A stretch of 62,068 nucleotides of DNA, taken from positions 1-62,068 of IMG/VR virus record IMGVR_UViG_3300017989_000122. One strand, given 5' to 3'. Every line of letters begins with the position of its first letter. The first letter of the stretch is position 1. Shown here in pieces: positions 10,030 to 62,068 of the stretch. The notes beneath the pieces were generated by a model, which was given only the letters and a program-made list of their open reading frames with translations, was not told the DNA's origin and ran no database searches. The translations under genes and the position numbers were made by a program. This DNA comes from a virus (Duplodnaviria; Caudoviricetes).

Positions 10030-10281
10030 TCACGCGGCCTTGCGATTGGTACGACGGGCCATACGTTGATGCTTGCGGTGCCACTTGCGGACGCCGTACG
10101 GCATAGTATGATTTGGTCCGCCGTGGCCCGGCTTCTTCGCCTTGGTCTGCGCCTTCTCCTCCTTCGGCTCGACGCGCGGCGGTGCCATGACGGCGACGTC
10201 CGCCTTGCGCGTCTCGGTCTTCTTCGTCTCGCGCTTCGTCCAGCGCGCGGCGAACCAGTCGACGATGCCCTTGAACTTCAT
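10030..10281 (-). CDS. Basic hypothetical early protein
   Basis: AGGAGGAAC leader; MKFKGIVDW... Confidence 0.6.
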   Translation of the reverse strand: MKFKGIVDWFAARWTKRETKKTETRKADVAVMAPPRVEPKEEKAQTKAKKPGHGGPNHTMPYGVRKWHRKHQRMARRTNRKAA

Positions 10282-10316
10282 CTCGGTTCCTCCTTGGTTT
10301 GGGTGGTGGATTTTTG

Positions 10317-10553: not shown

Positions 10554-10595
10554 CGTTCGTTCCTCCTCTTTGTGTGTGGGTGATTGGGTATAGGT

Positions 10596-10925: not shown

Positions 10926-10951
10926 CGTTCGTTCCTCCTCTGTGGTTTGGC

Positions 10952-11233: not shown

Positions 11234-11259
11234 CGGTGGTTCCTCCTCGGTTGGGTAGT

Positions 11260-11460: not shown

Positions 11461-11486
11461 GACCGGTTCCTCCTCTTGGTGGTTGG

Positions 11487-11768: not shown

Positions 11769-12273
11769 GGTGGCTCTCCTTGTCGATTGTGTTGTGATGG
11801 ATGAAGGGTGGTGGTCGCTGTCCTCCTTGCCAGCGACCGTTGGTGGCTCTGAATCTGGGCGGCTCATTATCTCGGTGGTTAATGCGCGTGCCTGCGCCTG
11901 CGAGGCCTCCTTGGGGTTCGAGTTGTGTTTGTGCCGGTGCGGGGAATAGTCCCGCCTCTCCTGCTTTGGCGTTCCGCTTCAGCCCTCTAACTTGGCATCC
12001 CACATATCCGGCCCGTTACTGCCGGAGTCGTCTTCGCCATGCTGGCACTGCATCATCTCACCTGGTGATGACGGCTTGGCTGTCACCTCAATGCCTGGCT
12101 ACTGCCGCGTGGTTTCCTGGGCTTGGCTCGTCGCCCGTAACCTCCTGGCCAGTGGGTCACTATCGCCCTCCCTATCTGGCCGTCCCGGTGGAGCATCCCT
12201 TCTACCGGACCATCCACCGGAGTTCACCGGGACCGTTGGCTTGGGAACCTGGATTGGTTCTCCCCCTCGGCTT

Positions 12274-12297: not shown

Positions 12298-12360
12298 TCT
12301 GGGCTTGCGGGACCGCCGCAATTTGTGGGAGCTTTACCCCATTCGCCTTCTTGGCTTGCG

Positions 12361-12642
12361 TAACTCTTTGATAATCAATGACTTGGATTATGAATTTGTG
12401 TAACTCATTGATAATCAATGACTACGCCCGGTCGATTTTCAATGAACCCCGGCCTTTCGGCCTACCATAATTTAAGCCCACAAAGGGGGAAGGCAAACAA
12501 GGAATCGGGAATATCCCGAAAAAACCCTTAAATTACCCTTAAATCATTGATAGTCAAAGGGTTAAGGGTAAAATAGCCCCCGAATTGGCCGGATGCCCCA
12601 ATATCGAGAATTCCATATAAATCATTGATGGAGAGCAAGTTA
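12361..12642. promoter_or_regulatory. Four ~25-bp dyad repeats containing IHF-consensus half-sites
   Basis: TAACTCTTTGATAATCAATGACTT (12361), TAACTCATTGATAATCAATGACTA (12401), TAAATCATTGATAGTCAAAGGGTTA (12540), TAAATCATTGATGGAGAGCAAGTTA (12618); match or near-match to WATCAANNNNTTR. Confidence 0.6.
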
Positions 12643-20991: not shown

Positions 20992-21015
20992 CCCCCAACA
21001 CCAGGAGAGAAACAG

Positions 21016-21500: not shown

Positions 21501-22580
21501 ATGCCACAGGAAAACATCGAACAAGCCGCCCTTGACTTCATCGTCAACGGTGCCGCGATGGGAGATGCCGCCGCACGATTCCTGGCGATGGGTTGCAACG
21601 CGTCAGCAATGCGCCCGTTTATCGCCGAGGACGGTCGGCCCTACATCACCATCGTGAACGAGAAGGGCGAACTGACGCCCGTGGTCGCCAATGCTGCCAC
21701 TCTCCGCAGGGATGAGTGGAAGGACATCGACGACGCGGTGCTGAAGGCCGCACAAATCCGTATCGGCGGTATCCAGGACCTGCAGTCGATGGGCCTCGTC
21801 AGGAACATCGGCAACGGCCTCGGTTCCACCGTTCTGGAGTATGAGAAAGAATCCGACTTTGAAGATGCGGAAATGACGATGGATGCCATCACCCGCGTCA
21901 ACAAGGACCGCCCGACCTATGACACTGGCTACCTGCCCCTGCCGGTCGTGCATAAGGACTTCTCGTTCTCCGCTCGCGTTCTGGCGGCAAGCCGCCAACG
22001 TGGTCAGACACTCGACACCGCAAGTGCCGAGCTGGCGACCACGAAGGTGCTCCAGAAGTTAGAGGACATCCTGTTCAACGGGACTTCGTCCTATACCTTC
22101 GGCGGCGGGACTATTTATGGTTACGTCGATGCCCCGAACAAGAACACGGTCACCCTGGTTACCAACTGGGATGACAGCTCGAAGACCGGTGCCCAGATTG
22201 TCGCCGATATTCTGGACATGAAGCAGGCGAACATCGACGCCCTCCACTACGGTCCGTACATGCTGTACATCCCGACCGGTTACGAGACCAAGATGGACGA
22301 AGACCACACGTCCGGTTACCCGAAGACGATTCGTGCTCGTATCAAGGAAATCGAGAGCATCGTGGACGTCAAGGTGTCGGACAAGCTGGCTGCCAACAAG
22401 GTAATCCTGGTTCAGATGACCCAGGATGTCGTCCGGCTGGTCCAGGGATTGCCGCTGACTCCGGTCGAGTGGCAGACCGAAGGCAACATGCTCCATCACT
22501 ACAAGATTATGACCATCCAGGTCCCGCAGTTACGCAGCGATGCCAACAGCCGGTCCGGGGTCTGCCTCTTGTCAGCATAG
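21501..22580 (+). CDS. Major capsid protein (HK97/encapsulin-like)
   Basis: 359 aa; EWKDIDDAV, PLPVVHKDF, YGPYMLYIP; position and strong codon bias. Confidence 0.88.
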   Translation: MPQENIEQAALDFIVNGAAMGDAAARFLAMGCNASAMRPFIAEDGRPYITIVNEKGELTPVVANAATLRRDEWKDIDDAVLKAAQIRIGGIQDLQSMGLVRNIGNGLGSTVLEYEKESDFEDAEMTMDAITRVNKDRPTYDTGYLPLPVVHKDFSFSARVLAASRQRGQTLDTASAELATTKVLQKLEDILFNGTSSYTFGGGTIYGYVDAPNKNTVTLVTNWDDSSKTGAQIVADILDMKQANIDALHYGPYMLYIPTGYETKMDEDHTSGYPKTIRARIKEIESIVDVKVSDKLAANKVILVQMTQDVVRLVQGLPLTPVEWQTEGNMLHHYKIMTIQVPQLRSDANSRSGVCLLSA

Positions 22581-22603
22581 GAGACACTGCCTCTCCCCCC
22601 TAT

Positions 22604-22641
22604 CCCTCGCCCCGGTACCCAACCGGGGATGAGGGACCTTT
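22604..22641 (+). terminator. Hairpin after MCP (terminator/attenuator candidate)
   Basis: TCCCTCGCCCCGGT-ACCCA-ACCGGGGATGAGGGA followed by CCTTT. Confidence 0.45.
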
Positions 22642-22675
22642 CGGAGGGAGTGGTTGAACAAGGGAGGAGAACAAG

Positions 22676-29106: not shown

Positions 29107-29463
29107 ATGGCTACCTGCACCAACGAAGGCACTCCGAGGATTGCCGGACAAACCTGGATTATCAGGATGGACTGGCCTGCCGGGGTTCTCACCACTGACT
29201 GGTCATTTCGCAGTACATTGAAAACCAACATCGACGATGACGATGAGGATGCCGTACTCCGGTGGGACCACGATGTGACGGCGGCAGAAGTGGCAAGTGG
29301 GGTCGTGCGCGTGGAGTTTACCAATGAGGAAACCGCCGACTTGGAAGGGGACTACTATCACGATATCAAGTTGAAGGACGCGGATGGAAATCGTGGCTGG
29401 GTTCGTTCGCCTACACTCGTCCAGTTCATCAAGCCGGTCACCCAGCGGACGGAGGCAATATAA
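29107..29463 (+). CDS. BppU N-terminal-like fibre-anchor protein
   Basis: GVVRVEFTNEETADL.GDYYHDIKL; precedes the fibre gene. Confidence 0.55.
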   Translation: MATCTNEGTPRIAGQTWIIRMDWPAGVLTTDWSFRSTLKTNIDDDDEDAVLRWDHDVTAAEVASGVVRVEFTNEETADLEGDYYHDIKLKDADGNRGWVRSPTLVQFIKPVTQRTEAI

Positions 29464-32400
29464 TGGCTACTGCGTTTGAAATAATCAAAGTTGCGGTTGG
29501 TGATGAGGAGTACACGGTCAGTATTGGAGATGAAGCTTATCCGGCACTGATAGGACCGCAGGGTGAGCCAGGCGAAGCCGGTGGCGTTGTAGGCCCTAGT
29601 GTTTCCGTTGACAATCGTATTGTCCTGTTTAATGGGACCACCGGCAACCTCATCAAGCAATCGGCACATGATGAAACCGACCTTGACAATTTCCTTGCCC
29701 ATCTCACCGACACCACCAACCCTCATAGCGTTACGGCGGCACAGGCTGGGGCGGACCCCACAGGAACGGCGGCGGGCTTGATGTCCACTCACGAGGCAAC
29801 CTACGACCATGCCGATATTGCACTCAATACAACCCACCGTAATACCGTTACAGGCAATCCTCACGCCGTAACCAAGAGTGATGTGGGGTTGGGGAATGTC
29901 TTGAATGCGGCGCAGTTGGCGATTGCCAATGACCTGTCCGACCTAAATGATGCTCCTACAGCCCGTTCCAACCTGGGCTTGGGGAGCATGGCTATCATCA
30001 ATGATGCTCCAAGTGATGGGAAGACCTATGGTCGGAAGGACGGGGCGTGGGAGGAAATCGAGGCAAGTGAGATTGCTAATGCCATCCATGCCGCCACGGG
30101 GAAGACTACTCCGGTCAGTGCCGATGAGTTGGCATTGGTTGACAGCGAAGCCTCCTGGGGCCTCAAGAAACTGACATGGGGCAACCTACAGTCAACTCTT
30201 GAAACTTACTTCGATACACAGTACGATGCCATCAACACGGCGTCCGGCCTGATGACCGCCCACTTGGCGGCATACGCCCACGGCGATATCACTCTTAACA
30301 CTTCCCACCGTAATACGACTTCTGGCAATCCTCACTCCGTTACCAAGTCCGATGTTGGCTTGGGGAACGTGACCAATGATGCACAGTTGAAGATTGCCAG
30401 CGACCTTGCCGATTTGAACGATGCGGCAACGGCCAGGACCAATCTTGGGTTGGGTGGCATGGCCGTGCTCAACGATGCCCCCTCGGACGGAACGACTTAT
30501 GGACGGAAAGATGCCGCCTGGGTTTCCATGGTGACCTCGGTGGTATGGGGAGCCATTACCGGAACATTGTCCAACCAAACTGATTTGCAGAATGCCCTTG
30601 ATGCCAAACTCACTGCGGCCAGCAACTTGTCAGATGTCGCTAGTGCCGCCACGGCCAGGACCAATCTTGGCCTTGGGACACTAGCGGTTATTGATGACGC
30701 CCCCAGCGATGGCAATGTGTACGGGCGCAAGGACGGGGCATGGGAAGCGGTGGACGAGGCGGAGGTTGCCGCCGCCATCAATGCCGCTTCGGCAAAGACC
30801 ACTCCGGTTGACGCCGACAGGTTTGGCATCACCGACAGCGCGGCCTCGTATGCCTTGAAGCAGTTGACCTGGGCAAATCTGCTTGTTGGCGTCAAGGCAG
30901 AAACTGACATTGCTTCGGCGATTTCCTTGAAGCACACGCAGGGAACGGACCTTGGTTTGGACACAGGCGGTTCAAATCCAATCACCGCCGCCACCATCAA
31001 GGGCCATGTCGAAACCACTTCCGGCAATCCTCATAACGTCACCAAGTCGGACGTTGGCCTCGGCAATGTCACCAATGATGCACAGGTCACTTCCGTAACG
31101 GCGAGCGGGGCATTAAATTCTTCCGGTGGCACCACGCCGGACATCTCGCTGGATAATGTCAATACCCGGTACACGTTGGGCAACACAACGGCATTTCCGG
31201 CCCCGCCATCCGCCATTGCGTTCAGCACCTTGGTCGAGCAGGCAATCGGCCATGCTTCCGCAAAGACCACCCCGGTCGATGGTGATAGCATTGGCCTCGT
31301 GGATTCCGAGGACTTGGCGCAGTTGAAGGAAGTTACCTGGGCGAATGTCAAGGCTACGCTCAAAACGTACTTCGATACGGTGTACCAAGGAACAGGTTTG
31401 GCATTGCTCATCGCCAACAATCTTTCGGACCTCAATGATGTTCCTACGGCCCGTTCCAACCTGGGTCTCGGTTCTGCAGCTGTTGGGGATGCACAGTCGG
31501 CGACGCTGACCGCACCGTTGACAAGCACACAGGCTTTTAGCGTCATAGGGTCTGCCGCCCCCACCATTTCGATGCCTGCGGCGACAAACGCCAACGACGG
31601 CTATGCCACTTCTTCGCACATCCAGGCCATCGAAGCGAACACTTCGGCCATCAGCGCACTCGGAACGATGTCCACGGTGAATGATGCTCCGAGCGATGGC
31701 AGTTTCTATGGTCGCTTGAATGCCGCATGGGCAGACTCAACCAACATTACGGCGGTTGGTACTCTCACCTCGTTGACCGTCAGCGGGGATGTAACGTTGT
31801 CCGGCGCGGCAAGCCAACTGTTTCTGCCGCAGGTCAACGATGCCACCAACCCGACGATTGCCTTCGGTGATGGTAATACTGGATTCTATGAAGATGCTGA
31901 TAATCAGTTATGTGTCGCTATTGGTGGGGTAAAGAAGTGGACTTTTTATGCCAGCGTTGCCCAATGTGAAGTTGTTGCTGGTTCTCCTCGCCTAAACACT
32001 ACCAATACACCATCAGCGACAGTTCCAACATATCAATTCTATTCCGACGCCGACACCGGCATTGGCCGTGCCGGAGCCAACCAGTTATCGCTGATTGCGG
32101 GCGGCGTTGAGAACCTACGGCTTACCACTACCACGATTGAGGGATTGCTCCTTACTGCGGATGCCAACAACGTCCGACTCGGAGCCAACGCTGGCAATGA
32201 CTCAATGACTTCCGTTCGCACCGTAGTGATTGGCGTGGGTGCAGGAGAATCATTGACCGATGGCGACAACAATGTAGCCATCGGAGATGAGGCGTTGGGT
32301 GATGCCACCTCTGGATATAATAACATCGCCATTGGTCGTGAAGCACTAGAAGTCCTTATCACCAACGCCAACAATGTCGGCATCGGCTATCAAGCTGGTA

Positions 32401-34370
32401 AATATGTTACAGGTAACACTAACGTTGCTGTTGGTACTCTTGCGCTGGCTGGTTCTGCTGGTCATTCATCGACCAATAATGTTGCTGTTGGCGACCGAGC
32501 CTTAAGCTCAGCCAATGGTTGCTATTACAACGTGGCAGTCGGTGCATATGCGGGGTTTGGAATTACCACGGCTCGTCATGCGATAGTCATCGGCGAATAC
32601 GCTGGCAAGCATGAAACCACCAACTTTGGCCGACTGCACATTGACGCTTACGGAGATGACCGTTCCGACTTGGCTGATAGCGAAGCCAATGCAATCATCT
32701 ATGGTGTAATGACTGCCGCCGGAAAAACCACCCAGACACTTTCCCTGAATGCTCAAGTCACCATCGCTCGTGGCTTAACGGTTAATAACGATGCGGCGGC
32801 AGTCAACTTCGTGGTCAATCGTGTAACTACCGGAACAGCATTTGAGTATAACGGGACAACCGATTCGATTGAAGGTGACTTCATCACGGCGAACACCGAC
32901 AACACTCTGCTGGGTGTCAGTGCTGGTGGTAGCATTACGAGCGGCGTGAACAACACGCTAATCGGTGAAGAGGCTGGCTCGAACATAACCGACACAAGCA
33001 ACAACACTTGCGTAGGATATCAAGCAGGAAACGGAAGCGGCGTTGCACAGATTACGGCGTTTGGAAAAGGCGCAGGCAGACAATGTACTGGATTGCTTGG
33101 TACATTTGTTGGGATGAATGCAGGAACCCAAACCACTGGACAGGACTATGTGGTCTACGTTGGCGAGGAATGCGGCGTCAATATGCGAGGCGACCGCAAT
33201 ACGGTAGTCGGCGCATCTGCGCTCTATGGTAGTGGAACTCCCGCAAGCAATACTGGCAGTTACAATACTGTGATGGGTTGGGAGGCGATGGGTGGCGCAG
33301 TCACTACTGCTTCGTATAATACTGTCATAGGTTACAACGCGGGCAACGCATCAACTGCAATTGACCGTGGAATTTTCCTTGGTGCGTATGCTGGCAAGTA
33401 TGAAACCGTTGGTGGTAAGTTGTTTATCGATTCGTATGACCGTAGCACCGAGGCGGGAGCCCGTTCCAATTCCATCATCTACGGCATAATGGCTGTGGGC
33501 GGTGCCACCAGCCAGCAACTATTCTTGAATGCGGAAACCTACATCAACACCTCCGTCAATTTCCATTGCAATTCCTTCTCGACCTATGGGGCGGTTGCAG
33601 GGATTGGATTTAACAATCCTATTCTCGTTGACGACATTGACGAAAACACTCTCGACCACGGCGTTGAGGTTGAAGGGTTGGTCATTAAGGACAGCGGCTT
33701 TGCCCTCGGCTCCGATGCGGACGGCGACATCTACTACCGTGGCAGTGGAGCATTGGCGAGACTTGCAAAGGGAACTGGCTATCAACATCTTCGCATGAAC
33801 AGCGGGGCCACCGCTCCTGAGTGGGCCTCACTGCCGCCGGGAACCGTGTACGTTGACGTAGGCGCAATGGTGCCAGCCAGCACTGAGGGAGCCACGGCTA
33901 CTCAGGTCGAAACCGCAACGTACAAGCATTACTACGATGTGATGTCGTTCGATGGTGGCGCAAGCGATACCCATTGTGACTTCAAGTTGCGGATGCCAGA
34001 GGATTGGGACGGTGGCACCATCAAGGTGAAGGCTCTGTGGGAGCCGGCGGCAGGGGCCAGTGCCGATGACTGGATTCGGCTTGACGTACAGGCTGTGGCC
34101 TTGGGCAATGACGATGCCATCGATGCCGCCTTCGGAACGGCGGTCTACCTTGACGACCAAGTGATTGCCGTTGGCGACTTGCACGACACGGGTGCCAGTG
34201 CGGCATTGACTGTTGCTGGTTCGCCAGCGGCGGGTGACGTGATTCACTTCTTGATTGGCCGGGATGCTGATTACGATGGTGGTGGCGGCACGGCAATGGC
34301 CGAGGCGTTGCTACTGCACAGCATCGAAATCCAGTACACCAAGACGAACACCCCACCTTCGGCATGGTAA
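29463..34370 (+). CDS. Long repeat-rich fibre protein (head/collar or tail fibre)
   Basis: Repeats NPHxVTKSDVGLGNV, NxLSDxxxxxTARxNLGLG, DAPSDGxxYGRKDGAW, KTTPVD; YadA-like NNVAIG repeats. Confidence 0.85.
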   Translation: MATAFEIIKVAVGDEEYTVSIGDEAYPALIGPQGEPGEAGGVVGPSVSVDNRIVLFNGTTGNLIKQSAHDETDLDNFLAHLTDTTNPHSVTAAQAGADPTGTAAGLMSTHEATYDHADIALNTTHRNTVTGNPHAVTKSDVGLGNVLNAAQLAIANDLSDLNDAPTARSNLGLGSMAIINDAPSDGKTYGRKDGAWEEIEASEIANAIHAATGKTTPVSADELALVDSEASWGLKKLTWGNLQSTLETYFDTQYDAINTASGLMTAHLAAYAHGDITLNTSHRNTTSGNPHSVTKSDVGLGNVTNDAQLKIASDLADLNDAATARTNLGLGGMAVLNDAPSDGTTYGRKDAAWVSMVTSVVWGAITGTLSNQTDLQNALDAKLTAASNLSDVASAATARTNLGLGTLAVIDDAPSDGNVYGRKDGAWEAVDEAEVAAAINAASAKTTPVDADRFGITDSAASYALKQLTWANLLVGVKAETDIASAISLKHTQGTDLGLDTGGSNPITAATIKGHVETTSGNPHNVTKSDVGLGNVTNDAQVTSVTASGALNSSGGTTPDISLDNVNTRYTLGNTTAFPAPPSAIAFSTLVEQAIGHASAKTTPVDGDSIGLVDSEDLAQLKEVTWANVKATLKTYFDTVYQGTGLALLIANNLSDLNDVPTARSNLGLGSAAVGDAQSATLTAPLTSTQAFSVIGSAAPTISMPAATNANDGYATSSHIQAIEANTSAISALGTMSTVNDAPSDGSFYGRLNAAWADSTNITAVGTLTSLTVSGDVTLSGAASQLFLPQVNDATNPTIAFGDGNTGFYEDADNQLCVAIGGVKKWTFYASVAQCEVVAGSPRLNTTNTPSATVPTYQFYSDADTGIGRAGANQLSLIAGGVENLRLTTTTIEGLLLTADANNVRLGANAGNDSMTSVRTVVIGVGAGESLTDGDNNVAIGDEALGDATSGYNNIAIGREALEVLITNANNVGIGYQAGKYVTGNTNVAVGTLALAGSAGHSSTNNVAVGDRALSSANGCYYNVAVGAYAGFGITTARHAIVIGEYAGKHETTNFGRLHIDAYGDDRSDLADSEANAIIYGVMTAAGKTTQTLSLNAQVTIARGLTVNNDAAAVNFVVNRVTTGTAFEYNGTTDSIEGDFITANTDNTLLGVSAGGSITSGVNNTLIGEEAGSNITDTSNNTCVGYQAGNGSGVAQITAFGKGAGRQCTGLLGTFVGMNAGTQTTGQDYVVYVGEECGVNMRGDRNTVVGASALYGSGTPASNTGSYNTVMGWEAMGGAVTTASYNTVIGYNAGNASTAIDRGIFLGAYAGKYETVGGKLFIDSYDRSTEAGARSNSIIYGIMAVGGATSQQLFLNAETYINTSVNFHCNSFSTYGAVAGIGFNNPILVDDIDENTLDHGVEVEGLVIKDSGFALGSDADGDIYYRGSGALARLAKGTGYQHLRMNSGATAPEWASLPPGTVYVDVGAMVPASTEGATATQVETATYKHYYDVMSFDGGASDTHCDFKLRMPEDWDGGTIKVKALWEPAAGASADDWIRLDVQAVALGNDDAIDAAFGTAVYLDDQVIAVGDLHDTGASAALTVAGSPAAGDVIHFLIGRDADYDGGGGTAMAEALLLHSIEIQYTKTNTPPSAW

Positions 34371-43737: not shown

Positions 43738-44603
43738 AAGTCCTCATTATTGCAGGGGGTGGCGTATTCGGTATCATCCCGGCGCGTCTACTGGCCGATA
43801 TCGACGGCGGCCTTCGTAAGGTAGGCGTATTCGGCGGGACGTCCATCGGTGGTATCCTATCCATGATGTATGCGTCAGAGACCCATCCACTCACTGTATT
43901 GGGGTCTTTCCGACAAATGATGAGTTCGGTTTTCCATCGGTCATTCTGGAGTCGCCTTGTCCCAGGCCCCAAGTATTCGCCGGACGCGTTGGAGGCAGCA
44001 TTACAGGACACCCTTCCTGATAAGTTGTCCGACCTGCGAGGCAAGGTAGTCATCCCATCCATCGACTTTACCGGTGGCAAACCAAAGGTATGGGATAACA
44101 TATCGCCGCAGGACTTGGCCCTCGAAGCATGGATGGTCGGACGCGCCACGAGTGCGGCACCAACTTACTTCCCGCCGATGGATATCAACGGCCATGCCTA
44201 CATCGACGGTGGCCTCCTGGAAAACATCCCCATCGTGACAACTTGTTGTGCCATTAAGGATAAGTTGGGTATCCAGTTTTCCGAGATGGACGTATTCGTC
44301 ATTGGCACGGGCCACCGGGAAACCGGGAAGTATACGCCACACGAGGTAGCCGGCTGGGGATATCTCAGCTGGGCAAAGCCATTGGTGGAAATGCTGACGG
44401 GGGGGAATGAGATGGGTAGTCCGTTCTGGGCAAAGGAACTCGGACTGGCATCGTTCAGGATGTTTGACCCGGTGCGATTGAAACATAGCTGGAATATGGA
44501 TAACCCAAAGGATGGTGAGAAGGCAGAGGAAGAGGCGGTCAACCATGTTGCGGAGTTTCGTGAACTGTTCAACAAATGGTTAGTGGGAGAAGCAGATGAG
44601 TAA
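43734..44603 (+). CDS. Patatin-like phospholipase
   Basis: GGGVFG oxyanion loop, GTSIG nucleophile, ATSAAPTYF, DGG. Confidence 0.92.
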   Translation: MKVLIIAGGGVFGIIPARLLADIDGGLRKVGVFGGTSIGGILSMMYASETHPLTVLGSFRQMMSSVFHRSFWSRLVPGPKYSPDALEAALQDTLPDKLSDLRGKVVIPSIDFTGGKPKVWDNISPQDLALEAWMVGRATSAAPTYFPPMDINGHAYIDGGLLENIPIVTTCCAIKDKLGIQFSEMDVFVIGTGHRETGKYTPHEVAGWGYLSWAKPLVEMLTGGNEMGSPFWAKELGLASFRMFDPVRLKHSWNMDNPKDGEKAEEEAVNHVAEFRELFNKWLVGEADE

Positions 44604-44802
44604 GTGCGGACTGAAGACGGAAGTATACAGTAGGGTGGTCGGTTACCATCGACCCGTATCCGAATGGCATCCCGGCAAGCAGGAGGAGTTCAAGGGCCGT
44701 AAGGTGTTTGGTCTGCCGACTTCCCGTGCTTCTGCCGCCGACGAGGCAAGCGGCACAGAAGTATCCGAGGCAGATTGCGAAGAGCACAAAGAAGCAATTT
44801 GA
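44596..44802 (+). CDS. NrdD C-terminal-like (glycyl radical motif) small protein
   Basis: TEVYSRVVGYHRPVSEWHPGKQEEF. Confidence 0.8.
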   Translation: MSKCGLKTEVYSRVVGYHRPVSEWHPGKQEEFKGRKVFGLPTSRASAADEASGTEVSEADCEEHKEAI

Positions 44803-48158: not shown

Positions 48159-48178
48159 TGCGGTTCCTCCTCTGTTGG

Positions 48179-48862
48179 TTATCTTGGTGTGGTCCTTCTC
48201 CTTCGCCTTCGCTTGATTACAACCACGTCGCCCGGCTTCGGTTCGACGGTAAGGACCTTTGCAACATTCTTCGAGGCTTCCCCCTCCCACCATCGCTTCT
48301 TGAAGAAGTCGGGGTCAACCCAGTCCAGCCAGCTGGTCAGGCGCACGGCGAACCAGACCTCCTTCCAATCCCTCATGCGTCCGCCACAAAAGCCTTCGGC
48401 CACGTTCACGAAAACATTGCCGTCGCCAAAATGCTCCTTGAGCTTGTCATTGAGGGACTTGGGGTAAATCATTACGGGCACCCGCTGGTCCCGCTTGGCA
48501 ATGATGATTCCGAAGGGACTGCCCGCCCGTTCCCTTTCCTCTTCCACTTGTCGGATGAAGGAGCCAACCGTTGCTTCGTCCTTCATGTTCTTGCCGTAGT
48601 CCAACTGGTCAAGGAATGACCATTTGCCGTAGCCGCACTTGAGTTCGATAACACAGGCGTCAATAAGCGGTTGGCCCACCGGGTCGGTTGCCTGCACATC
48701 GCCGTATTGGTTGGCGGTGCGACGACGCCGACGTGTGGCCATGCCGCCCGACCCGGCGGTGCGCCAGAAGATGTCGTCGTGCTCGTTGTCCGACCACCAC
48801 CAGGAAAGTTGGCGGCAAATCTTCCGCTCGAACGAACTGCCTTTGTGGGCTCCCTTGGTCAT
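48179..48862 (-). CDS. Holliday junction resolvase (PD-(D/E)xK, Hjc-like)
   Basis: KGSSFERKIC, SGG, GDV, IELK. Confidence 0.85.
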   Translation of the reverse strand: MTKGAHKGSSFERKICRQLSWWWSDNEHDDIFWRTAGSGGMATRRRRRTANQYGDVQATDPVGQPLIDACVIELKCGYGKWSFLDQLDYGKNMKDEATVGSFIRQVEEERERAGSPFGIIIAKRDQRVPVMIYPKSLNDKLKEHFGDGNVFVNVAEGFCGGRMRDWKEVWFAVRLTSWLDWVDPDFFKKRWWEGEASKNVAKVLTVEPKPGDVVVIKRRRRRRTTPR

Positions 48863-49140
48863 GCCTCAATCTCCTGGGTGTGCACTAGATGACCGAGCAA
48901 TCCTATCTTGCCATAAACGACCTCGTTGTCGATTGGTGTCTGGCCAGCACTGCGCATTGCATAAACCATGCAAGCAGGGTTGCCGTCGCAAACCATCCAG
49001 GATTGACCAGAGACTCTGTCCCACCAATCCTCTACGACAAATTCACTGCCGCCAAAATCAGGAACCTGAAAGTGTTTGGCTTCTTTTTTGATGCGAACTG
49101 TTTTGCCAGCCATCGGATGCGGCTCTTTGTGGGTCATCAC
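48859..49140 (-). CDS. Hypothetical phage protein
   Basis: EDWWDRV...GNPAC...YGKIG; coupled to both neighbours. Confidence 0.65.
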   Translation of the reverse strand: MMTHKEPHPMAGKTVRIKKEAKHFQVPDFGGSEFVVEDWWDRVSGQSWMVCDGNPACMVYAMRSAGQTPIDNEVVYGKIGLLGHLVHTQEIEA

Positions 49141-50240
49141 TCATATCTCCTTCTGCGTTTGGGTTTAAGTGCTTCGTCTATCTCTTTCCAGGTCTTGCCG
49201 ACGAGTCGACGGACGCGGCGGTAAAAGTGTTTGTCCTTCTCCATCAGTTTGACCAGGGCCGCTGTCGTCCCGCTCTTGCCTTCCAGTACGATTTTCCCGC
49301 GCCGCTTTCTTACCTTCTTGTACTCCAGCAGGAAGTCAATCATGCTCGTATTGTCATCCACACCATAGTCATACAACAACGGGATTTCAATCTGGGAGTG
49401 GCGACCCGTAACTTTGTTCTTCGTTATCTTGACGATGGCACTGAGTCCAATGCTGTGGGACTTGCCACTGACTTTCAATTTCATCTTCTTGCCGACCGCC
49501 GTCCATATTTCATGTGTGGAATAGAATTGCAGTGCACGCCCTCCACTACGCCGTTTCTTGGCGAAGGTCATAGGATTGATGTTATCCCGCGTTTGACTGA
49601 TGACGATGAGGCATGAGCGGGTTCCTTTGAGTTTTCCTTTTATCATCCGCAGTAACTGGCTGGACTTCTTTGGCTTGGACATTCCCATGTCCCCAGCGGC
49701 TTTGGTTCCTTCGCGCCTCGCTTTCATCTGTGTTTGGACTTTTTCGATTTCCTCGTCACTGGTCAATGCGTCAAAGGAATCAAGTACATACAACAGCGGG
49801 ATTTCACTGTTAAGCTCGGCATCCAAGTTGGCATGGAAGTCCTGTACCGTGTCACTATAAAGTGGACTATCATCCAGTCCGGTAGCAGGCGGCCGTATCC
49901 GACTTGCGGTTGCCTCCCCGAACAAATGGGGCAGATTGAACTCCAGTGCCTGCTCTGCGTCATCATAGATGAGATTATAGTCGTCGAACTTCTCGTCGTG
50001 GGCCATCTCCGCGAACGCGGTCAATGCCAGTAACGTCTTCCCACTGGAACTATCACCGATGAGATTGACAATCTTGCCCAGCGGCCAACCACCATCGACG
50101 CGGTTGGACAGGGCAAGGTTCAACAAGGTGGAACCGGTGGGGATGAACCCGGGTGGTGAATCATCTTCCTTGACTGTCCTGGCTTTCAGGTCCCGCCTGA
50201 TTTGCTTGGACAACTTCGGTTTGGTAGTTCGACGTGCCAT
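49137..50240 (-). CDS. recA: RecA/UvsX-like recombinase
   Basis: IPTGSTLLNLAL, GDSSSGKT, DAE, LDS, SGGRALQFY, KNKV. Confidence 0.92.
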   Translation of the reverse strand: MARRTTKPKLSKQIRRDLKARTVKEDDSPPGFIPTGSTLLNLALSNRVDGGWPLGKIVNLIGDSSSGKTLLALTAFAEMAHDEKFDDYNLIYDDAEQALEFNLPHLFGEATASRIRPPATGLDDSPLYSDTVQDFHANLDAELNSEIPLLYVLDSFDALTSDEEIEKVQTQMKARREGTKAAGDMGMSKPKKSSQLLRMIKGKLKGTRSCLIVISQTRDNINPMTFAKKRRSGGRALQFYSTHEIWTAVGKKMKLKVSGKSHSIGLSAIVKITKNKVTGRHSQIEIPLLYDYGVDDNTSMIDFLLEYKKVRKRRGKIVLEGKSGTTAALVKLMEKDKHFYRRVRRLVGKTWKEIDEALKPKRRRRYE

Positions 50241-50260
50241 GACTCGCCTTTCAGTAAAGA

Positions 50261-50330
50261 GGTCGCCGAGGCATCATTTGTTAAGTGGGGAGCCACCCAA
50301 CCCACCAGAGGAGGTGACGCCCCGGCGACC
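50261..50330 (-). ncRNA. Structured intergenic RNA element with an anti-RBS loop (candidate sRNA)
   Basis: 16-bp stem that pairs fully only on the minus strand (two G-U pairs); loop begins CCUCCUCUGGUGGGUUGGGUGG. Confidence 0.45.
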
Positions 50331-50337
50331 GATGAGA

Positions 50338-51492
50338 CTACCTGCGCTTGCGTTTCTTGGTTTTTGTTTTCTTCTCATTAAGCCGGTCCTGCTCATCCTG
50401 GCAGGCCTCCCAGACACTGCAATCGTCGCACTGGCCTAGCTCGTTGCAATCATGGCCAAAGTTGCCTCCGTGGGGACACTGGCCTTCACCACCCTTCGTC
50501 CGACGGGACTTCTTTTTCTTCTTCGGCGGTTCCTCTTCCTCTTCCTCGTCCTCTTCCTCTTCCTCGTCCTCGTCCTCTTCCTCTTCCTCGTCCTCGTCCT
50601 CTTCCTCTTCCTCGTCCTCTTCCTCGTCCTCTTCCTCGTCCTCGTCATGGGCCGGACGCCTCTTCTTGCGAGTGCGGCGCGATTCCTCCTCCTCTTCTTC
50701 GGATTCCTCTTCCTCCTCGGCTTCCTCCTCGGCTTCCTCCTCTTCCTCGGCCTCGTTGCTTTCGCCAAGGAATATTGCCTCCAGCTTGTCGTAGGGAAGG
50801 ACGTTCAGCAGTTCATCGAGGTCCTGGGACTCGTCAAGGATTTCCTCGCCGTGCTCCTCGTCGCGGTCCTTGAAGTCGATTCGGGTGCACTCCAAATATG
50901 ACCTGGTGCCGAGCGATTCCTCCGTGAATCGCAGGCGGAGGGTTTTACCACCGCTGAGTTCGGCGAACCCATACGCGTCATCATCCTCGTCCAGATTGCG
51001 GAGTTCCTCTTCCAGCTTGCGACCGAATAGGTAAGTACTCACCTCCCATAACTGGACACCCTTGTCCGGGTCATCCACGTCGATGACATTGAACAGTTCG
51101 CGTTCCTTGGGACGGAGTGCCTTGATAGCATCTTCGTCTGCGTCCGAACGACGCTGCATCTCACTCCTCGCCTTGCAAATCGGGCACGGTTTTCCGACAG
51201 TTTTCGGGCAGAGGTAGGCCGACTCGTCGACACCAATGCCGAAGTGGACGAGGATGGTCCGCTGGTACCACAACTCACCCTTCTTGACTTCGGGATGATT
51301 ACTGACCGACACCTTATAGGGAACGATGTCGATGTTGTTGCGTCCGGCCTTCGGTCGCCAGAATGCCGTTCCTTCTTGGGCGTTGATGTAGTTACTGCCG
51401 CCGCCACGACTTGCGTTGCGTTCGGCCCGTTCACGCGCCTTCTTCGCCATACTGCTCTGGCGCTGTTTCTTACTCGTCCTCTTCTTTACCAT
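50338..51492 (-). CDS. T4 gp32-like single-stranded DNA-binding protein with acidic tract and Cys-rich C-terminus
   Basis: HFG...CPKTVGKPCPIC, LFNVID; long Glu/Asp tract; between uvsY-like gene and recA. Confidence 0.75.
   Translation of the reverse strand: MVKKRTSKKQRQSSMAKKARERAERNASRGGGSNYINAQEGTAFWRPKAGRNNIDIVPYKVSVSNHPEVKKGELWYQRTILVHFGIGVDESAYLCPKTVGKPCPICKARSEMQRRSDADEDAIKALRPKERELFNVIDVDDPDKGVQLWEVSTYLFGRKLEEELRNLDEDDDAYGFAELSGGKTLRLRFTEESLGTRSYLECTRIDFKDRDEEHGEEILDESQDLDELLNVLPYDKLEAIFLGESNEAEEEEEAEEEAEEEEESEEEEEESRRTRKKRRPAHDEDEEEDEEEDEEEEEDEDEEEEEDEDEEEEEDEEEEEEPPKKKKKSRRTKGGEGQCPHGGNFGHDCNELGQCDDCSVWEACQDEQDRLNEKKTKTKKRKRR
50535..50752. repeat. Low-complexity (TCC/TCT/TCG)n tandem repeats encoding poly-Glu/Asp
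   Basis: Visible in sequence. Confidence 0.9.
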
Positions 51493-53892: not shown

Positions 53893-53948
53893 CGCCCGGT
53901 CCTCCGTTGTTGGTTGTTTCAGCACGCGCCTCAAGGCTGGCGTTCGCA
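53819..53948 (+). mobile_element. attC-like recombination hairpin 3
   Basis: GCCGGAC-AA-AGCCTC[G]GAGGCG[A]CGTGCT...AGCACGCGCCTCAAGGCT-GGC-GTTCGCA. Confidence 0.65.
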
Positions 53949-53969: not shown

Positions 53970-54470
53970 TCAGGCATCGGTGTGCTCCTTTGGTTGCTTA
54001 TCCAGCGGGAATCGTGGGTCTATTCCCAAAGGGTTAAGTGGCCCAAATCTACATTCTTCACAACTGATATCCCCAGAAAATTCATGCTCGCAGTCATAGT
54101 CATAGCCATCGGTGGGGTTGCCGCAAGTATATCCCAGACAACGGGCAGGAGCGTCATGACCCCTCGGCGTGTCAGATTGCTCACACTCATCGGGTGGCTG
54201 GAAGTCGGGCGCGATGCGGTAGATACCTTCTGGACGTTCTGTTCTCTCGCAAAGCGAAAAATGTTTTACTGTCTTGCAATAAGATACCGTTTGACTGTGG
54301 CGTAGAACATCCACCTCTTCATCTGACAGAAACATTCTTGCTCTTTCATTCTCCTTCAACCTCTCGCAGATTTCCCTGCGCTCCGGCGTCCACCATGATG
54401 CAGGTTTCATTCCGTCTCTCCTTTTAATAAGCATGGCATCCGTTCTCGGCGTATCGCTATCGCTCATCAT
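53970..54470 (-). CDS. Hypothetical mosaic protein
   Basis: ATGA-coupled to polA; SDTPR motif occurs twice; C-terminal Cys cluster. Confidence 0.55.
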   Translation of the reverse strand: MMSDSDTPRTDAMLIKRRDGMKPASWWTPERREICERLKENERARMFLSDEEVDVLRHSQTVSYCKTVKHFSLCERTERPEGIYRIAPDFQPPDECEQSDTPRGHDAPARCLGYTCGNPTDGYDYDCEHEFSGDISCEECRFGPLNPLGIDPRFPLDKQPKEHTDA

Positions 54471-55828
54471 CCTCCCTCCATACTGAATTTCTCTTTCGCG
54501 TGCCAAGATTCTCCCGGCGGTGACAGCTCGACTTCGATTTCCAGTGGTGTAATAATCCACGACCATGCCTTACGGATGTCCTCGGTCATCACCTGTTCCA
54601 ATATTCCAACAATTTCTGGTATGTGCCTCGGTCGCACGTCCATCACGATTGAGTCATGGATTTGCCCGACGATGCAACGCGGTAGGCCCCTCGACCTCAG
54701 TCCAGCATGGATGTGAATCAGCGACCAGAGCAAGCAATGGAACGCCGCCCCCTGCACCGGGTAGTTGATACAGTCATTCCTGCTCATCAGATTGGAACAA
54801 CGAAACCCGGTTTTGCCTTCGATGAACCCCCGCTTCAAATATTGGGCGTACCAGTCCCGCCTCCATTGGTCATATACCCTGAACCGCCGCCAGAAGTTGG
54901 CTTCAACTTTTGCAATATGCTTTGTGAAGTCTATCAGGTTCCTAATTCCTTTTTTCATCAAGTGCTTCTTCAATGGGACTCCACTTTTGCTTTTCAAGTC
55001 CATCAACTCAATCGCGTTCCATAGTTCCGGTGCACAATCTTCGTAGTACGAACCATAGAACTGTGGGAATACAAACTTATTCTTACCACAGTATCGGATG
55101 TCGGAAGTCATTTCCTCCAATGGAAGGATGTAGCAGTTCGCCGCCTCATCACGATGTAAGTCCTTCGTCGGGTCCTTAATGTAATCCAGCATCAACGGGT
55201 CATGGTGATAGCAAGTCGCTACACGCACTTCGGCTCCATCGTAGTCGCTTTCGAGGAATTGCCGCCCTTTACGTGGGATGAAACATCGCCGGATGGTGCG
55301 CCCCTGTTCCTTGTCACGGATGGGCATGTTCTGGAAACTCGGATTGCTGGCCGATGACCGATACGTGCGGACAAAGTTCAGGGGAAAGTGTGGATGGATG
55401 AATCCGTCGACCATCTCCCGTTCGATTTGTACCAGGTACTGGATTGACTTCTGATGCTTCCGCATCTTGAGTAGGTCGGCGAGGAAGGGAACCTCCTTGG
55501 CCAGCACTTGCAAGCTGGCGGCGTCGACTCTCGGATTGCCTTTCTTCGTATGGTCGACCGGCTTCACACCCAGTTCCTTGAATAGAATCACAGTCAACTG
55601 TGGACCGGAGTCCAGATTCATGTCATCGCCGTATCGCTTCTTCCACTTATGTACACCCTTACTGGCCATCACTTCCCTGCGTGCCCTGTGCATCTTCCGG
55701 CGCGTCCTACGTAGTTGCGTTTGGAGGTATTCTTCGTCAATACGGATACCGAAGTTACTTACATCGGATAATGTCCGTACCCCTTGCAACATGAAATGAT
55801 TGAAGTCGGATAGTCGACTATGCTTCAT
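54467..55828 (-). CDS. Family A DNA polymerase, polymerase domain (split gene)
   Basis: Motif A DYDGAEVR, motif B R...K..F..FYG, NYPVQG, motif C IHDS. Confidence 0.93.
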   Translation of the reverse strand: MKHSRLSDFNHFMLQGVRTLSDVSNFGIRIDEEYLQTQLRRTRRKMHRARREVMASKGVHKWKKRYGDDMNLDSGPQLTVILFKELGVKPVDHTKKGNPRVDAASLQVLAKEVPFLADLLKMRKHQKSIQYLVQIEREMVDGFIHPHFPLNFVRTYRSSASNPSFQNMPIRDKEQGRTIRRCFIPRKGRQFLESDYDGAEVRVATCYHHDPLMLDYIKDPTKDLHRDEAANCYILPLEEMTSDIRYCGKNKFVFPQFYGSYYEDCAPELWNAIELMDLKSKSGVPLKKHLMKKGIRNLIDFTKHIAKVEANFWRRFRVYDQWRRDWYAQYLKRGFIEGKTGFRCSNLMSRNDCINYPVQGAAFHCLLWSLIHIHAGLRSRGLPRCIVGQIHDSIVMDVRPRHIPEIVGILEQVMTEDIRKAWSWIITPLEIEVELSPPGESWHAKEKFSMEGG

Positions 55829-57069
55829 CGTTCCAACTCCCTCATTTGTGCATAAGCCAGGCGATGTTCCAACAACGCATCCATACCACAGTAAAGCAGT
55901 AGGTCGTCCATCGGTGCCTTGTCGATGGTATTAAAGGCGTTCGCCCCATCCTCCTTGCTTTCCAGAAACTTTGCCACACTTTTGTTGTAGTCGAAGATTC
56001 CCCATCGTCTAGCCGCCTGGAACTTGACTGATGTAATATTCGGTCGATTATCCAGGATGTGTGCCGCGAGAACAGTATCCCATATCCAGTTCCTTGGCTC
56101 GACGCCCAGGATGACTCGTGACCACTCATTCTCAAACGCGATATTGGCTGCAATCTTTTCGATGTCAGGATTTGCCATCAGTCGGGCAACTGTTTTTTGA
56201 ACGCGGCCGTCATTCATTGGGAAGGCCCACGCACCATCGACCGATGGACTGACGGCACAGGTTACAATGCGGTGGCCCTCCGCGTGGGGTTTGATGCCGG
56301 TCGTTTCGTAGTCAATGGTAATTCGGTCGCCGGCTTTGATACTACGAAGGCACTCGATGATTTCCCGTGGTTCCATCAGTCGCTTGATACAATCCTGTGC
56401 CACTATCATCTTCGGCAACTGTGATTTCTGTTTTGCCAGCCGCGCCACCAGCTTGATATCATCCTGGACTTGTAGGGTTGCCGGGTCGGTGGTCTTGCCA
56501 CGCCGTAGGAGGAACGCCGGATGGTAGGTGGCAACGAACCAACATCCCCGCTCATAGTCTGGAACCGCATAGCCGCGCCAGCGACTGATGCCTCCCAGTT
56601 CCTTACGCCAGCGGCCATCCATCCAGGCGGTCAACGCGACATTGCCGACCAGCAGTACGACCCGGGGTTTTAGTTCTTGGACTTCGCGCAACCAAAACTC
56701 CTTACAGGTTTTGATTTCCCGTCCGGTCGGCGTCCGATTGTTAGGCGGACGGCAGCGGATGGCATTGGTGCGCCAGCAGTCCATATCCATATTGAGGCCG
56801 GCTCGCCTCATCATCTGCCGAAGGAGGGCCCCAGAACCGCCCACCAAGGGCACCCCCTGGGCATCCTCGGCAGAACCCGGGGCTTCGGCCATGATGAGCA
56901 GTCGATGCCGTCCTTTGCCGTAGTGAGGCATCTTCGGCGAGTGGCATCCGGTCAAGAGTGTGCATGACTCGCCGCAGGTCAGGCGAGCCGCCCGTGGCGT
57001 CCTGGCCTTCCTCGTCCCGGTGCGCCGCTTGGCCTTTTTCGGGAGTTTGAAGAATCCGGTTCCCATCAC
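55825..57069 (-). CDS. Family-4 uracil-DNA glycosylase-like domain + 3'-5' exonuclease (SPO1-type PolA N-terminal half)
   Basis: AEAPG, NAIRCRPPNNRTP, TYHPA; ExoI DYETTG, WDT, ExoIII YCGMD. Confidence 0.88.
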   Translation of the reverse strand: MMGTGFFKLPKKAKRRTGTRKARTPRAARLTCGESCTLLTGCHSPKMPHYGKGRHRLLIMAEAPGSAEDAQGVPLVGGSGALLRQMMRRAGLNMDMDCWRTNAIRCRPPNNRTPTGREIKTCKEFWLREVQELKPRVVLLVGNVALTAWMDGRWRKELGGISRWRGYAVPDYERGCWFVATYHPAFLLRRGKTTDPATLQVQDDIKLVARLAKQKSQLPKMIVAQDCIKRLMEPREIIECLRSIKAGDRITIDYETTGIKPHAEGHRIVTCAVSPSVDGAWAFPMNDGRVQKTVARLMANPDIEKIAANIAFENEWSRVILGVEPRNWIWDTVLAAHILDNRPNITSVKFQAARRWGIFDYNKSVAKFLESKEDGANAFNTIDKAPMDDLLLYCGMDALLEHRLAYAQMRELER

Positions 57070-60070: not shown

Positions 60071-60958
60071 CTACCGGATTAAACCCATCAATTCTGCACG
60101 GGCTTCCGGTTTCTTGAGGAAGGCCCCACGCAGGCTACTCGTGACCATGACTGAATGTTGTTTCCCGATTCCTCGGCAGGTCATGCACAGGTGTTGCGCC
60201 TCCAAGACACAAGCCGCGCCCTTCGGCCTGAGGTGTTCCATCAGTGCCGCCGTCACCTGCTGACCGATGCGCTCCTGGATTTGTAGTCGCCGGGAAAAGA
60301 TTTCCAGTAGTCGAGCCAGCTTGGATATGCCCACGACCATCCCGCTGGGGATGTAGGCGATGTGCGCCTTGCCGGAGAAGGGAAGCATGTGATGTTCGCA
60401 CATGGAATAGAACTCGATGTCCTTCAGGAGGACCATCTCATCACAGGCGCCGTCGTAGAATGTCTTCAGGACGGAGGCGGGGTCCTGGTCATAGCCGGAG
60501 TACAACTCCTTCCATGACCGCACGATACGCTCGGGCGTTTCCAGTAGGCCTTCCCGGCGAGGATTCTCACCGATGTGTTCCAGGATACGGACGACCGGGT
60601 CGGTGGCGTCCTCATCAGCGAGGTGTTCCTCCCACGGGAACACGACCCAGCCGATGTCCTTGTCCCGCCCCGTCGTCTTGTCCACGGCGGCGACGAAGGG
60701 AACGTTAGGGAATTGCTTGCGGTAGTCATCGCGCGTCCTACCGGAGTCAATGATGTCATCAACGATTACATGGCATGGCAAGTGGGAAACGAACTGGTAA
60801 CAGTCAGGATAATTTTCAGCCATCACTGCCGCCAGTATCGTCCCACCACGCGGCACTCCATAAATGATAAGTGGACTAGAGTGGTTCTCCCGATACGGCC
60901 TGAGCTTCTCGTTCAGCCGCCCCCTGACATCCAAGTACGACAAATGGGTCCTTTTCAT
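60071..60958 (-). CDS. folE: Phosphoribosyltransferase-GTP cyclohydrolase I fusion
   Basis: N-terminal GVPRGG, VIVDDIIDSGRT, WVVFPWE; C-terminal REGLLETP, CEHHMLPF, GISKLAR, LQIQE, HLCMTCRG. Confidence 0.92.
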   Translation of the reverse strand: MKRTHLSYLDVRGRLNEKLRPYRENHSSPLIIYGVPRGGTILAAVMAENYPDCYQFVSHLPCHVIVDDIIDSGRTRDDYRKQFPNVPFVAAVDKTTGRDKDIGWVVFPWEEHLADEDATDPVVRILEHIGENPRREGLLETPERIVRSWKELYSGYDQDPASVLKTFYDGACDEMVLLKDIEFYSMCEHHMLPFSGKAHIAYIPSGMVVGISKLARLLEIFSRRLQIQERIGQQVTAALMEHLRPKGAACVLEAQHLCMTCRGIGKQHSVMVTSSLRGAFLKKPEARAELMGLIR

Positions 60959-61632
60959 CAGTCCGCCTCCTCATACTTGACCGGGTCCTTCAACCCCAAG
61001 GACTCGAACGCATCCAACCGCTTGCGACAGGCACCACACTTCCCGCACGGCAGTCGCTGGTCCTTATAGCAGGTGCGTGTGAGTTCGTACGGGACTTCAC
61101 GAGCAATCCCATCCATCAGGATTCCTTTCTTGTTTGTGTAAACGAACGGAGCCTCCAAGGTGGTGGCTCTTCCCGTTCCTTCTTCAACCGCCAGCTTCAT
61201 CGCCTCGAAAAACGCGGGCGTCGTATCTGGGTATACTGTGATATCGCCAGGTGTTTGATGAAAACCAAACGCAATCGTATCCACCTCCATTGACTGTGCC
61301 AGCCCGGCCAGGATGGCGGCAAAGACTATGTTGCGTGCCGGTAGGTAGGTCTTGGTCATGGCCGGTTCCAGGAAGTGGCCTTCGGGAATCTCGCCCTGCC
61401 CATCTAGTAGGTTGGACTTGAAGCTGGTGAAGCAGGCGGAGATGTCATAGTGGCGTAGGTGTTGCCGTAGTCCGAAGTGGGCCAGTACGTCAAGCATCGC
61501 CTGCCGTTCCCACTTGTTGTTCTTGGCACCATACTGGAAGTGCACTGGAAAGACGTCACGGCCTTCATCCAGTGCCCAAGCAATCACAGCGGCCGAGTCC
61601 ATGCCGCCAGAAGTACTAACAATAGTTTTCAC
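60958..61632 (-). CDS. queC: 7-cyano-7-deazaguanine (preQ0) synthase
   Basis: SGGMDS, TYLPARN, YPD, TRTCY..PCGKCGAC. Confidence 0.95.
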   Translation of the reverse strand: MKTIVSTSGGMDSAAVIAWALDEGRDVFPVHFQYGAKNNKWERQAMLDVLAHFGLRQHLRHYDISACFTSFKSNLLDGQGEIPEGHFLEPAMTKTYLPARNIVFAAILAGLAQSMEVDTIAFGFHQTPGDITVYPDTTPAFFEAMKLAVEEGTGRATTLEAPFVYTNKKGILMDGIAREVPYELTRTCYKDQRLPCGKCGACRKRLDAFESLGLKDPVKYEEAD

Positions 61633-61660: not shown

Positions 61661-61690
61661 GCACCCCCTGCCGACTTGCACAGGGGGTGC
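61661..61690. terminator. Perfect 10-bp hairpin between the H1-like gene and queC
   Basis: GCACCCCCTG-N10-CAGGGGGTGC; no clear U-tract. Confidence 0.45.
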
Positions 61691-61708
61691 TGGGATACGG
61701 ACTGGCGA

Positions 61709-62068
61709 CTACTTCTTCTTCGCAATCGCCGGGAGTCCCTTGCCGTTGGCCCACCGGTTCATCCAGGACCGGATGGTCGACTCCTTGACTTTCTTGCCGA
61801 CCATCTTGTACAGCTTGGCGGCATCCGTCTCGCCCTTGCCCTTCTTCCAGGCCTTCCAGACCTGCGCCTTGGGGCACGACTCCAACGTCTTCCGGTCGCG
61901 CTTCGGTGGTGTGGGCTTGGACTTCTTCTCGGCGGCCTTCTTGCCATTGGACTTCTTCTCGGCGGCCTTCTTCGTGGTCTTCTTGGACTTCTTGGTGGCT
62001 TTCACTTCCTCTTCCTCCTCTTCTTCGGATTCCTCTTCCTCCTCGGCTTCCTCCTCGGCTTCCTCCTC
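61709..62068 (-). CDS. 3' half of the wrap-around Lys-rich protein (H1-like repeats + small C-terminal domain)
   Basis: KKAAEKKS twice; ESTIRSWMNRW; frame open to the window end. Confidence 0.7.
   Translation of the reverse strand, partial: EEEAEEEAEEEEESEEEEEEEVKATKKSKKTTKKAAEKKSNGKKAAEKKSKPTPPKRDRKTLESCPKAQVWKAWKKGKGETDAAKLYKMVGKKVKESTIRSWMNRWANGKGLPAIAKKK

Follow-up and report, generated by a model that had tools for sequence, protein, structure and literature searches.

The strongest predicted RNA fold among 6199 sense-strand 80-nt windows of this phage genome lies in the 97-nt spacer between the ssb and recA genes (50251–50330, −45.4 kcal/mol, against a mean of −20.7 and an sd of 5.6), and this hairpin most likely marks a transcript boundary. 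On balance, and with moderate confidence, we favour a cis-acting role as an attenuator or decay barrier after ssb, within the ssb–recA mRNA. The hairpin would be a leaky intrinsic terminator (attenuator), a block to 3′-exonucleases or a processing site. In each case the ssb message, for which demand is high, would exceed the downstream recA message in lifetime or in number, and recA would be expressed via read-through. The position of the hairpin, its strand specificity, its U-rich tail, the recurrence of hairpins at this place in relatives and the lack of a detectable recA promoter all fit a leaky terminator or decay barrier; termination, stabilisation and the nuclease that would take part are the steps that we infer.

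Genome setting of the spacer

The window, by which we mean the whole stretch of DNA that was analysed, is an IMG/VR record of 62068 bp classed as a complete virus with direct terminal repeats. Minus-strand genes occupy two stretches, one running from ∼12.0 kb down to position 1 and the other from 62 to 45 kb, and the plus-strand genes at 12.7–44.6 kb make up the structural block. The ssb gene (50338–51492, minus strand) encodes 384 aa with matches to phrog_1192 (E = 1.7e-13) and phrog_224 (E = 8.8e-06), a Pfam search of this ORF having returned nothing useful, and a reading of its sequence suggests that an SSB core at the N terminus is followed by a long acidic repeat and, at the C terminus, by a Cys-rich motif. 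It is followed by a RecA/UvsX-like recombinase gene (49137–50240, minus strand; PF00154, E = 5.9e-22; phrog_97, E = 4.5e-48). Genes for a clamp-loader-like ATPase, a PDDEXK nuclease, an SMC/AAA ATPase and pieces of a DNA polymerase lie nearby, and the neighbourhood is a replication and recombination module. A search for tRNA and tmRNA genes found none.

The ssb stop codon UAG (50340–50338, minus strand) stands 7 nt before the basal stem of the hairpin, and recA, which has a weak Shine–Dalgarno sequence (SD; AAAGG), starts 20 nt past it. A scan for sigma-70-like promoters, with a consensus that may not be that of the host, found none between the hairpin and recA and none on the minus strand just upstream of the hairpin, which fits read-through into recA.

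Further features were observed in this module and elsewhere in the record. The DNA polymerase is split over two adjacent minus-strand ORFs (55825–57069 and 54467–55828), which match consecutive positions of phrog_17 (478–828 and 843–1234, respectively). A 35-nt exact repeat is shared between the region coding for the ssb acidic tail (50709–50743) and the start of the record (1–35), with a third copy, 80% identical, at 62023–62057 within a minus-strand ORF that runs off the record end; public assemblies break inside the ssb acidic repeat (50523–50655). In the plus-strand genes, a stand-alone 68-aa ORF (44596–44802) matches only the C-terminal end of NrdD, the anaerobic ribonucleotide reductase (PF13597, E = 7e-09, profile positions 526–562 of 562), which we take to be the glycyl-radical end of that enzyme, and an ORF of 1635 aa (29463–34370) contains diverged internal repeats at 471-nt spacing (29766–31731), as in tail-fibre-like proteins.

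A branched, strand-specific hairpin

The basal stem is formed by the 5′ arm GGUCGCCGGGGCGUCA (50315–50330, minus strand) and the 3′ arm UGAUGCCUCGGCGACC (50261–50276, minus strand), which appear in the sequence as an inverted repeat and are joined in the RNA fold; the arms are 16 nt each, 88% complementary as DNA and 38 nt apart. The initial annotation had described a 16-bp stem whose two plus-strand A–C mismatches become G–U pairs on the minus-strand RNA, and both points are borne out, with all positions of 50330–50315 paired with 50276–50261. The interior of the stem starts with CCUCCUCUGGUGGGUUGGGUGG, as quoted there, and is 38 nt long, but it is not predicted to be an open loop, as the model folds it into two small hairpins. 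The first of these, within CCUCCUCUGGUGG (50302–50314, minus strand), is a weak mini-hairpin that holds the anti-SD heptamer CCUCCUC and in which CCUCC pairs with GGUGG around UCU. The second (50280–50301, minus strand) consists of GUUGGGUGG, the loop CUCC and CCACUUAAC, with 9 bp including 2 G–U pairs, and its stem positions have a predicted unpaired probability of ∼0. Interior and basal stem together are predicted to form a three-way junction, which is found in both the MFE and the centroid structure and which the model retains at temperatures of 10–45 °C. The stem is directly followed by the U-rich tail UCUUUACU (50253–50260, minus strand), with 5 U in 8 nt and a longest run of 3.

The minus-strand fold of a 105-nt stretch reaches −48.9 kcal/mol (z = −3.83), and none of 200 dinucleotide shuffles was as good. 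The plus strand of the same stretch folds at −39.4 kcal/mol, the difference of 9.5 kcal/mol being due to the two G–U pairs, and the 86-nt spacer RNA that contains the stem folds at −45.6 kcal/mol. Rfam 15, searched with the whole window at the gathering score, gave 0 matches, a permissive local Rfam scan gave matches at chance level only (E ≥ 1.9), and a terminator scan did not call the hairpin site. Two other candidate explanations were rejected: the fold model does not favour a G-quadruplex in GGUGGGUUGGGUGG, and a repeat or mobile element disagrees with the single-copy stem arm and with a loop that is absent from 82 other loci (L002–L083).

The strand asymmetry also bears on whether the feature might act from the plus strand or as DNA, be it as an inverted relic of a leader cassette, as the driver of a 35-aa ORF from 50332 or as a cruciform or origin-type element, all of which we regard as very improbable. 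The plus strand does carry a CA-rich tract followed by AGAGGAGG, similar to the leader families D8, D17 and D18, as well as an ATG at 50332 in frame with the ORF 50059–50439. However, GGAGG is located 17 nt before this ATG, compared with 7–8 nt in the six early leaders described below, the GGAGGAAC signature of the leaders is missing, the scan found no plus-strand promoter nearby and the stem arm has no second copy, while the G–U asymmetry favours a minus-strand RNA. A hydrophobic antisense ORF would, moreover, be expected opposite Lys/Glu/Arg codons, and the 35-aa hydrophobic ORF itself was rejected on account of the 17-nt distance to its SD and the lack of a promoter in the scan.

RNase III-type processing occurs between the early genes of phage T7, and the stem could similarly be a site for a double-strand-specific RNase of this type, which would cut the ssb message apart from that of recA, one of the two then retaining the hairpin as protection. 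The intercistronic position and the uninterrupted 16-bp helix, with possible coaxial stacking on the inner hairpins in the model, are consistent with such a site. However, 16 bp is less than the roughly two helical turns that are usual, and only stacking on the inner hairpins could extend these 16 contiguous bp; the idea also overlaps with that of an attenuator or decay barrier. As a separate explanation, processing of this kind is given a small probability.

Intrinsic terminators, attenuators and intercistronic 3′-protective hairpins sit after highly expressed genes of operons. The ssb–recA hairpin resembles intrinsic terminators and 3′-protective hairpins in its GC-rich stem directly after a stop codon, in its U-rich tail, in a fold specific to the transcribed strand and in a downstream gene that would depend on read-through, and relatives carry hairpins of canonical form at the same position. 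It differs from typical intrinsic terminators, which have loops of 3–8 nt, in its branched 38-nt interior and in a U tract that is short and interrupted, and its function is putative. Transcripts of T4 gene 32 (ssb) are reportedly the most stable mRNAs of T4 (PMC3014915). The branched 38-nt interior, the short and interrupted U tract and the fact that a minority of relatives have a strong hairpin all count against an attenuator. If the hairpin is nevertheless a cis-acting attenuator or decay barrier, the anti-SD heptamer and the G/U tract next to it would be building material of the three-way junction, without a function in trans.

Other strong folds and the flanks of the hairpin

Another top-ranked intergenic sense-strand fold (22591–22670, plus strand) directly follows the major-capsid-like gene (21501–22580; DUF6260/Linocin_M18; phrog_771 and phrog_264). 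The tail of this capsid hairpin, ACCUUUCGG, resembles the tail of the ssb–recA hairpin and has a similarly short U tract. Strong hairpins are found after ssb and after the major capsid gene and therefore follow at least two high-demand genes. The capsid hairpin is a 12-bp GC hairpin whose flank CUCUCCCCCC, 11 nt past the capsid stop codon, is predicted to pair with GGGAGGAGA, the SD of the next gene (start 22676), and this modelled pairing may provide translational coupling or mask the SD. A further top-ranked intergenic sense-strand fold, at 61661–61740, contains a perfect 11-bp GC hairpin and is located just upstream of a QueC homologue (60958–61632, minus strand; PF06508, E = 9.7e-47), a gene that hints at 7-deazaguanine modification of the phage DNA.

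Flank pairing might also confer translational control on recA in cis. The ssb–recA hairpin would bring the ssb stop codon near the ribosome-binding site of recA, its 5′ flank CUCAUC would weakly mask the recA SD (GGCGAG), and recA translation would then rely on ribosomes that terminate on ssb (coupling or re-initiation). In the 97-nt fold the flanks do pair across the hairpin (CUC with GAG and UC with GG), the SD of recA pairs only weakly with an anti-SD sequence (−4.2 kcal/mol), and a similar, stronger flank pairing, CUCUCCCCCC with GGGAGGAGA, surrounds the capsid hairpin. However, the flank pairing adds only ∼0.6 kcal/mol (−46.2 versus −45.6 kcal/mol), takes another form in the 105-nt fold and disappears at 45 °C, and the anti-SD heptamer has no part in it; we consider this kind of control unlikely.

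Leaders of the early genes

The initial annotation had interpreted the hairpin as a candidate antisense RNA against a leader shared by the early genes. Such leaders are indeed present on the minus strand at the three starts that it named, as CCAACCACCAAGAGGAGG (11469–11486, before ATG 11460), CCACCCAAACCAAGGAGG (10289–10306, before ATG 10281) and CCAAACCACAGAGGAGG (10934–10950, before ATG 10925), and similar ones precede three further starts, as ACUACCCAACCGAGGAGG (11242–11259, before ATG 11233), CACCCACACACAAAGAGGAGG (10562–10582, before ATG 10553) and AACAAACCACAACACAGGAGG (10010–10030, before ATG 10001), all on the same strand. They are made up of CA-rich sequence and GAGGAGG, and fall into the overlapping direct-repeat families D8, D9, D14, D17 and D18 of a repeat search. 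GAGGAGG-type SDs occur across the genome, middle and late genes included.

CA-rich leaders with a strong SD were also observed outside the early cluster, before four more genes with starts at 280, 48158, 53892 (leaders 280–316, 48159–48193 and 53893–53919, minus strand) and 21016 (leader 20990–21015, plus strand). Between the two gene blocks, the divergent region (at 12360–12421 and 12533–12571) contains the 22-nt sequence TCATTGATTATCAAWGAGTTAC twice, 40 nt apart, with ATCAATGA-type palindromes nearby, and both are probably operators or promoter elements. Two imperfect inverted repeats with arms of 21–22 nt (3579–3675 and 12169–12246) have the 12-mer GTTGGCTTGGGA in common in one arm, and the control region that precedes the early genes holds one of them.

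Complementarity of the interior to the leaders

The claim that the interior is complementary to the early leaders holds. A 22-nt stretch of it is predicted to form duplexes with the six early translation-initiation regions at −18.9 to −30.6 kcal/mol, and the mean of −27.5 kcal/mol was matched by 0 of 500 shuffles of the whole loop. When CCUCCUC was kept fixed and the other 15 nt were shuffled, the mean was −26.0 kcal/mol (sd 1.3) and 55 of 500 shuffles equalled or beat the real sequence; the match to the leaders is therefore one of an anti-SD heptamer plus a G/U tract with no specific base order. The complementarity is thus in part beyond chance and mostly compositional.

In a scan of the 2949 22-mers on both strands that contain an anti-SD-like pentamer, the interior ranked seventh, the top six being the exact antisenses of the leaders themselves, and the next site on a sense strand reached −22.6 kcal/mol, ∼5 kcal/mol weaker. 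Among these pentamer-holding 22-mers the interior is the genome's best sense-strand complement to the leaders. With the interior as the query, the leader before 11460 is the best sense-strand target of 41360 windows (−35.7 kcal/mol in a 30-nt window) and the remaining early leaders are among the 40 best non-overlapping sites. Scores of −28 to −33 kcal/mol are also reached by many sites other than translation starts. CCTCCTC occurs in 2 copies on the sense strands of the 62-kb genome versus 53 on the antisense strands, and of the 8 pure G/T runs of at least 12 nt on sense strands the second longest, at 15 nt, adjoins one of these two copies. It is unlikely that the heptamer and the second-longest G/U run came together by chance. 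A cis-acting attenuator or decay barrier leaves this conjunction unexplained, and the unusual interior therefore keeps the idea of an RNA directed at the leaders alive at low probability.

In that case the hairpin would be a stable 3′-end fragment of the ssb mRNA, of which the CCUCCUCU seed and the G/U tract pair with early (and some other) leaders and block 30S binding, so that early translation would stop once the replication genes are transcribed; we think this unlikely, though not negligibly so. The shuffle result for the whole loop, the lead of ∼5 kcal/mol over the next sense-strand complement, the top rank of the 11460 leader and the rarity of the heptamer beside its G/U run argue for it. 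So does the modelled accessibility of the CCUCCUC seed, which opens for only 2.2 kcal/mol, and a very stable hairpin is the type of fragment that survives decay. However, 15.3 kcal/mol are needed in the same model to open the G/U tract or the full 22 nt, and a 22-bp duplex inside a closed interior of 38 nt would probably be topologically strained. RNAcofold of the hairpin with a leader was uninformative on this point, since pairing between a closed interior and another strand is outside the nested folds that it considers. The specificity is also doubtful: more than a tenth of the shuffles of the G/U part alone pair equally well once the heptamer is fixed, numerous sites scoring −28 to −33 kcal/mol are not starts, and the CCUCCUC seed is not specific to early genes because GAGGAGG occurs 53 times on sense strands, middle and late genes included. 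A promoter of its own was not found for such an RNA in the sigma-70-like scan, with a consensus that may not be the host's, and the motif was not found in the hairpins of distant relatives. Of the antisense proposal, then, the complementarity is real, whereas it is mostly a matter of composition, extends to many sites other than starts and involves a seed that was not found in the hairpins of distant relatives.

Known regulators offer partial parallels. RsaE/RoxS of Firmicutes are sRNAs with C-rich loops that pair with SD sequences, and the ssb–recA hairpin resembles them in presenting a C/U-rich anti-SD seed on a stable stem-loop; they are, however, independent genes with their own promoter and terminator and with conserved seeds, and neither feature was found here. 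The c4 RNA of phages P1 and P7 is reported to turn its loop sequences on a ribosome binding site (PMC12197685), and the likeness lies in a structured phage RNA that pairs around a ribosome binding site and blocks translation. According to the same source c4 acts on the ant mRNA (PMC12197685), whereas the candidate targets here are at least six leaders ∼24 kb upstream on the same strand; c4 is an RNA, and the ssb–recA hairpin is known as a predicted fold, with a discrete RNA being putative. In T4, the endoribonuclease RegB inactivates early mRNAs by cutting GGAG in the SD (PMC3014915). RegB would be a functional analogue of an RNA directed at the leaders, as both aim at early SDs, although RegB is a protein, a nuclease acting together with ribosomal protein S1 (PMC3014915), and the agent proposed here is an RNA that pairs with the SD. 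By this analogy, such an RNA would be the RNA counterpart of early shut-off by T4 RegB/RegA. A limited, non-exhaustive literature search, which took in passages from a review of phage sRNAs, turned up no RNA directed at a leader that early genes share.

Hairpins upstream of recA in relatives

Cultured phages gave no DNA match to this phage; its RecA is only ∼31% identical to Vibrio phage proteins, and its SSB gave one partial match. Single-protein scans of viral and metagenome contigs returned no close relatives, and the two matches of an 18-nt loop pattern in viral contigs were rejected as unrelated chance hits. Two RecA protein relatives (P0002 and P0003) have 59–62% identity. Over positions 49100 to at least 50417, hairpin included, contigs from three DNA runs (sediment and seawater) match the window exactly and therefore provide no variation for a covariation analysis; a fourth run (X6) had no cover over the hairpin.

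A profile built from RecA relatives yielded 80 IMG/VR and 80 metagenome loci with 36–57% identity, the only match above 51% (L098) having no region upstream of recA. Before counting, we excluded loci that extend <160 nt upstream or <1000 nt downstream from the recA start, exact duplicates in the 150 nt upstream and, in the metagenome set only, loci whose match started after query residue 45. Hairpins were counted as 60-nt folds of ≤ −25 kcal/mol within 150 nt upstream of recA, with windows inside recA as controls. Such folds are present in 14 of the 74 non-duplicate IMG/VR loci (controls: 8 of 296) and in 7 of the 59 non-duplicate metagenome loci (controls: 3 of 236); both sets together give 21 of 133 loci, compared with 11 of 532 control windows. 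At a threshold of −20 kcal/mol the counts are 28/74 versus 44/296 for IMG/VR (Mann–Whitney p = 0.005) and 15/59 versus 25/236 for the metagenomes. Strong hairpins thus recur upstream of recA, at the ssb–recA position in only about a sixth to a third of relatives; in many others ssb and recA abut or have other genes in between.

The strong IMG/VR hairpins mostly end close to recA, within 31 nt of its start in 11 of 14 cases, and in many relatives the gene that precedes recA shares the acidic or lysine-rich tail and the Cys motif. Several of these hairpins have the canonical form of a GC stem with a T run behind it (L007, L037, L046, L053 and L075 among others). Of the 33 listed hairpins of ≤ −18 kcal/mol, 7 are followed within 8 nt by 4 or more T, and in L007, L072, L075 and L053 a T run is visible but is taken into the stem by the fold. 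These upstream hairpins have short loops. Anti-SD pentamers are not enriched upstream of recA compared with inside it (3.07 versus 2.62 per kb), with any present in 15 of 74 loci. Conservation of the anti-SD seed was thus not found among the distant relatives (RecA ≤ ∼51% identical), whose hairpins at this position are plain and short-looped.

Implications

If the interior did act on the leaders, a lytic-type phage would use one RNA, aimed at the leader that a whole class of early genes has in common, to time the shut-off of that class. If, as we favour, the hairpin is a cis-acting attenuator or decay barrier, it would be one more intercistronic terminator or stabiliser hairpin, and would help to annotate transcript units in an uncultured phage group in which the arrangement of ssb, hairpin and recA recurs.
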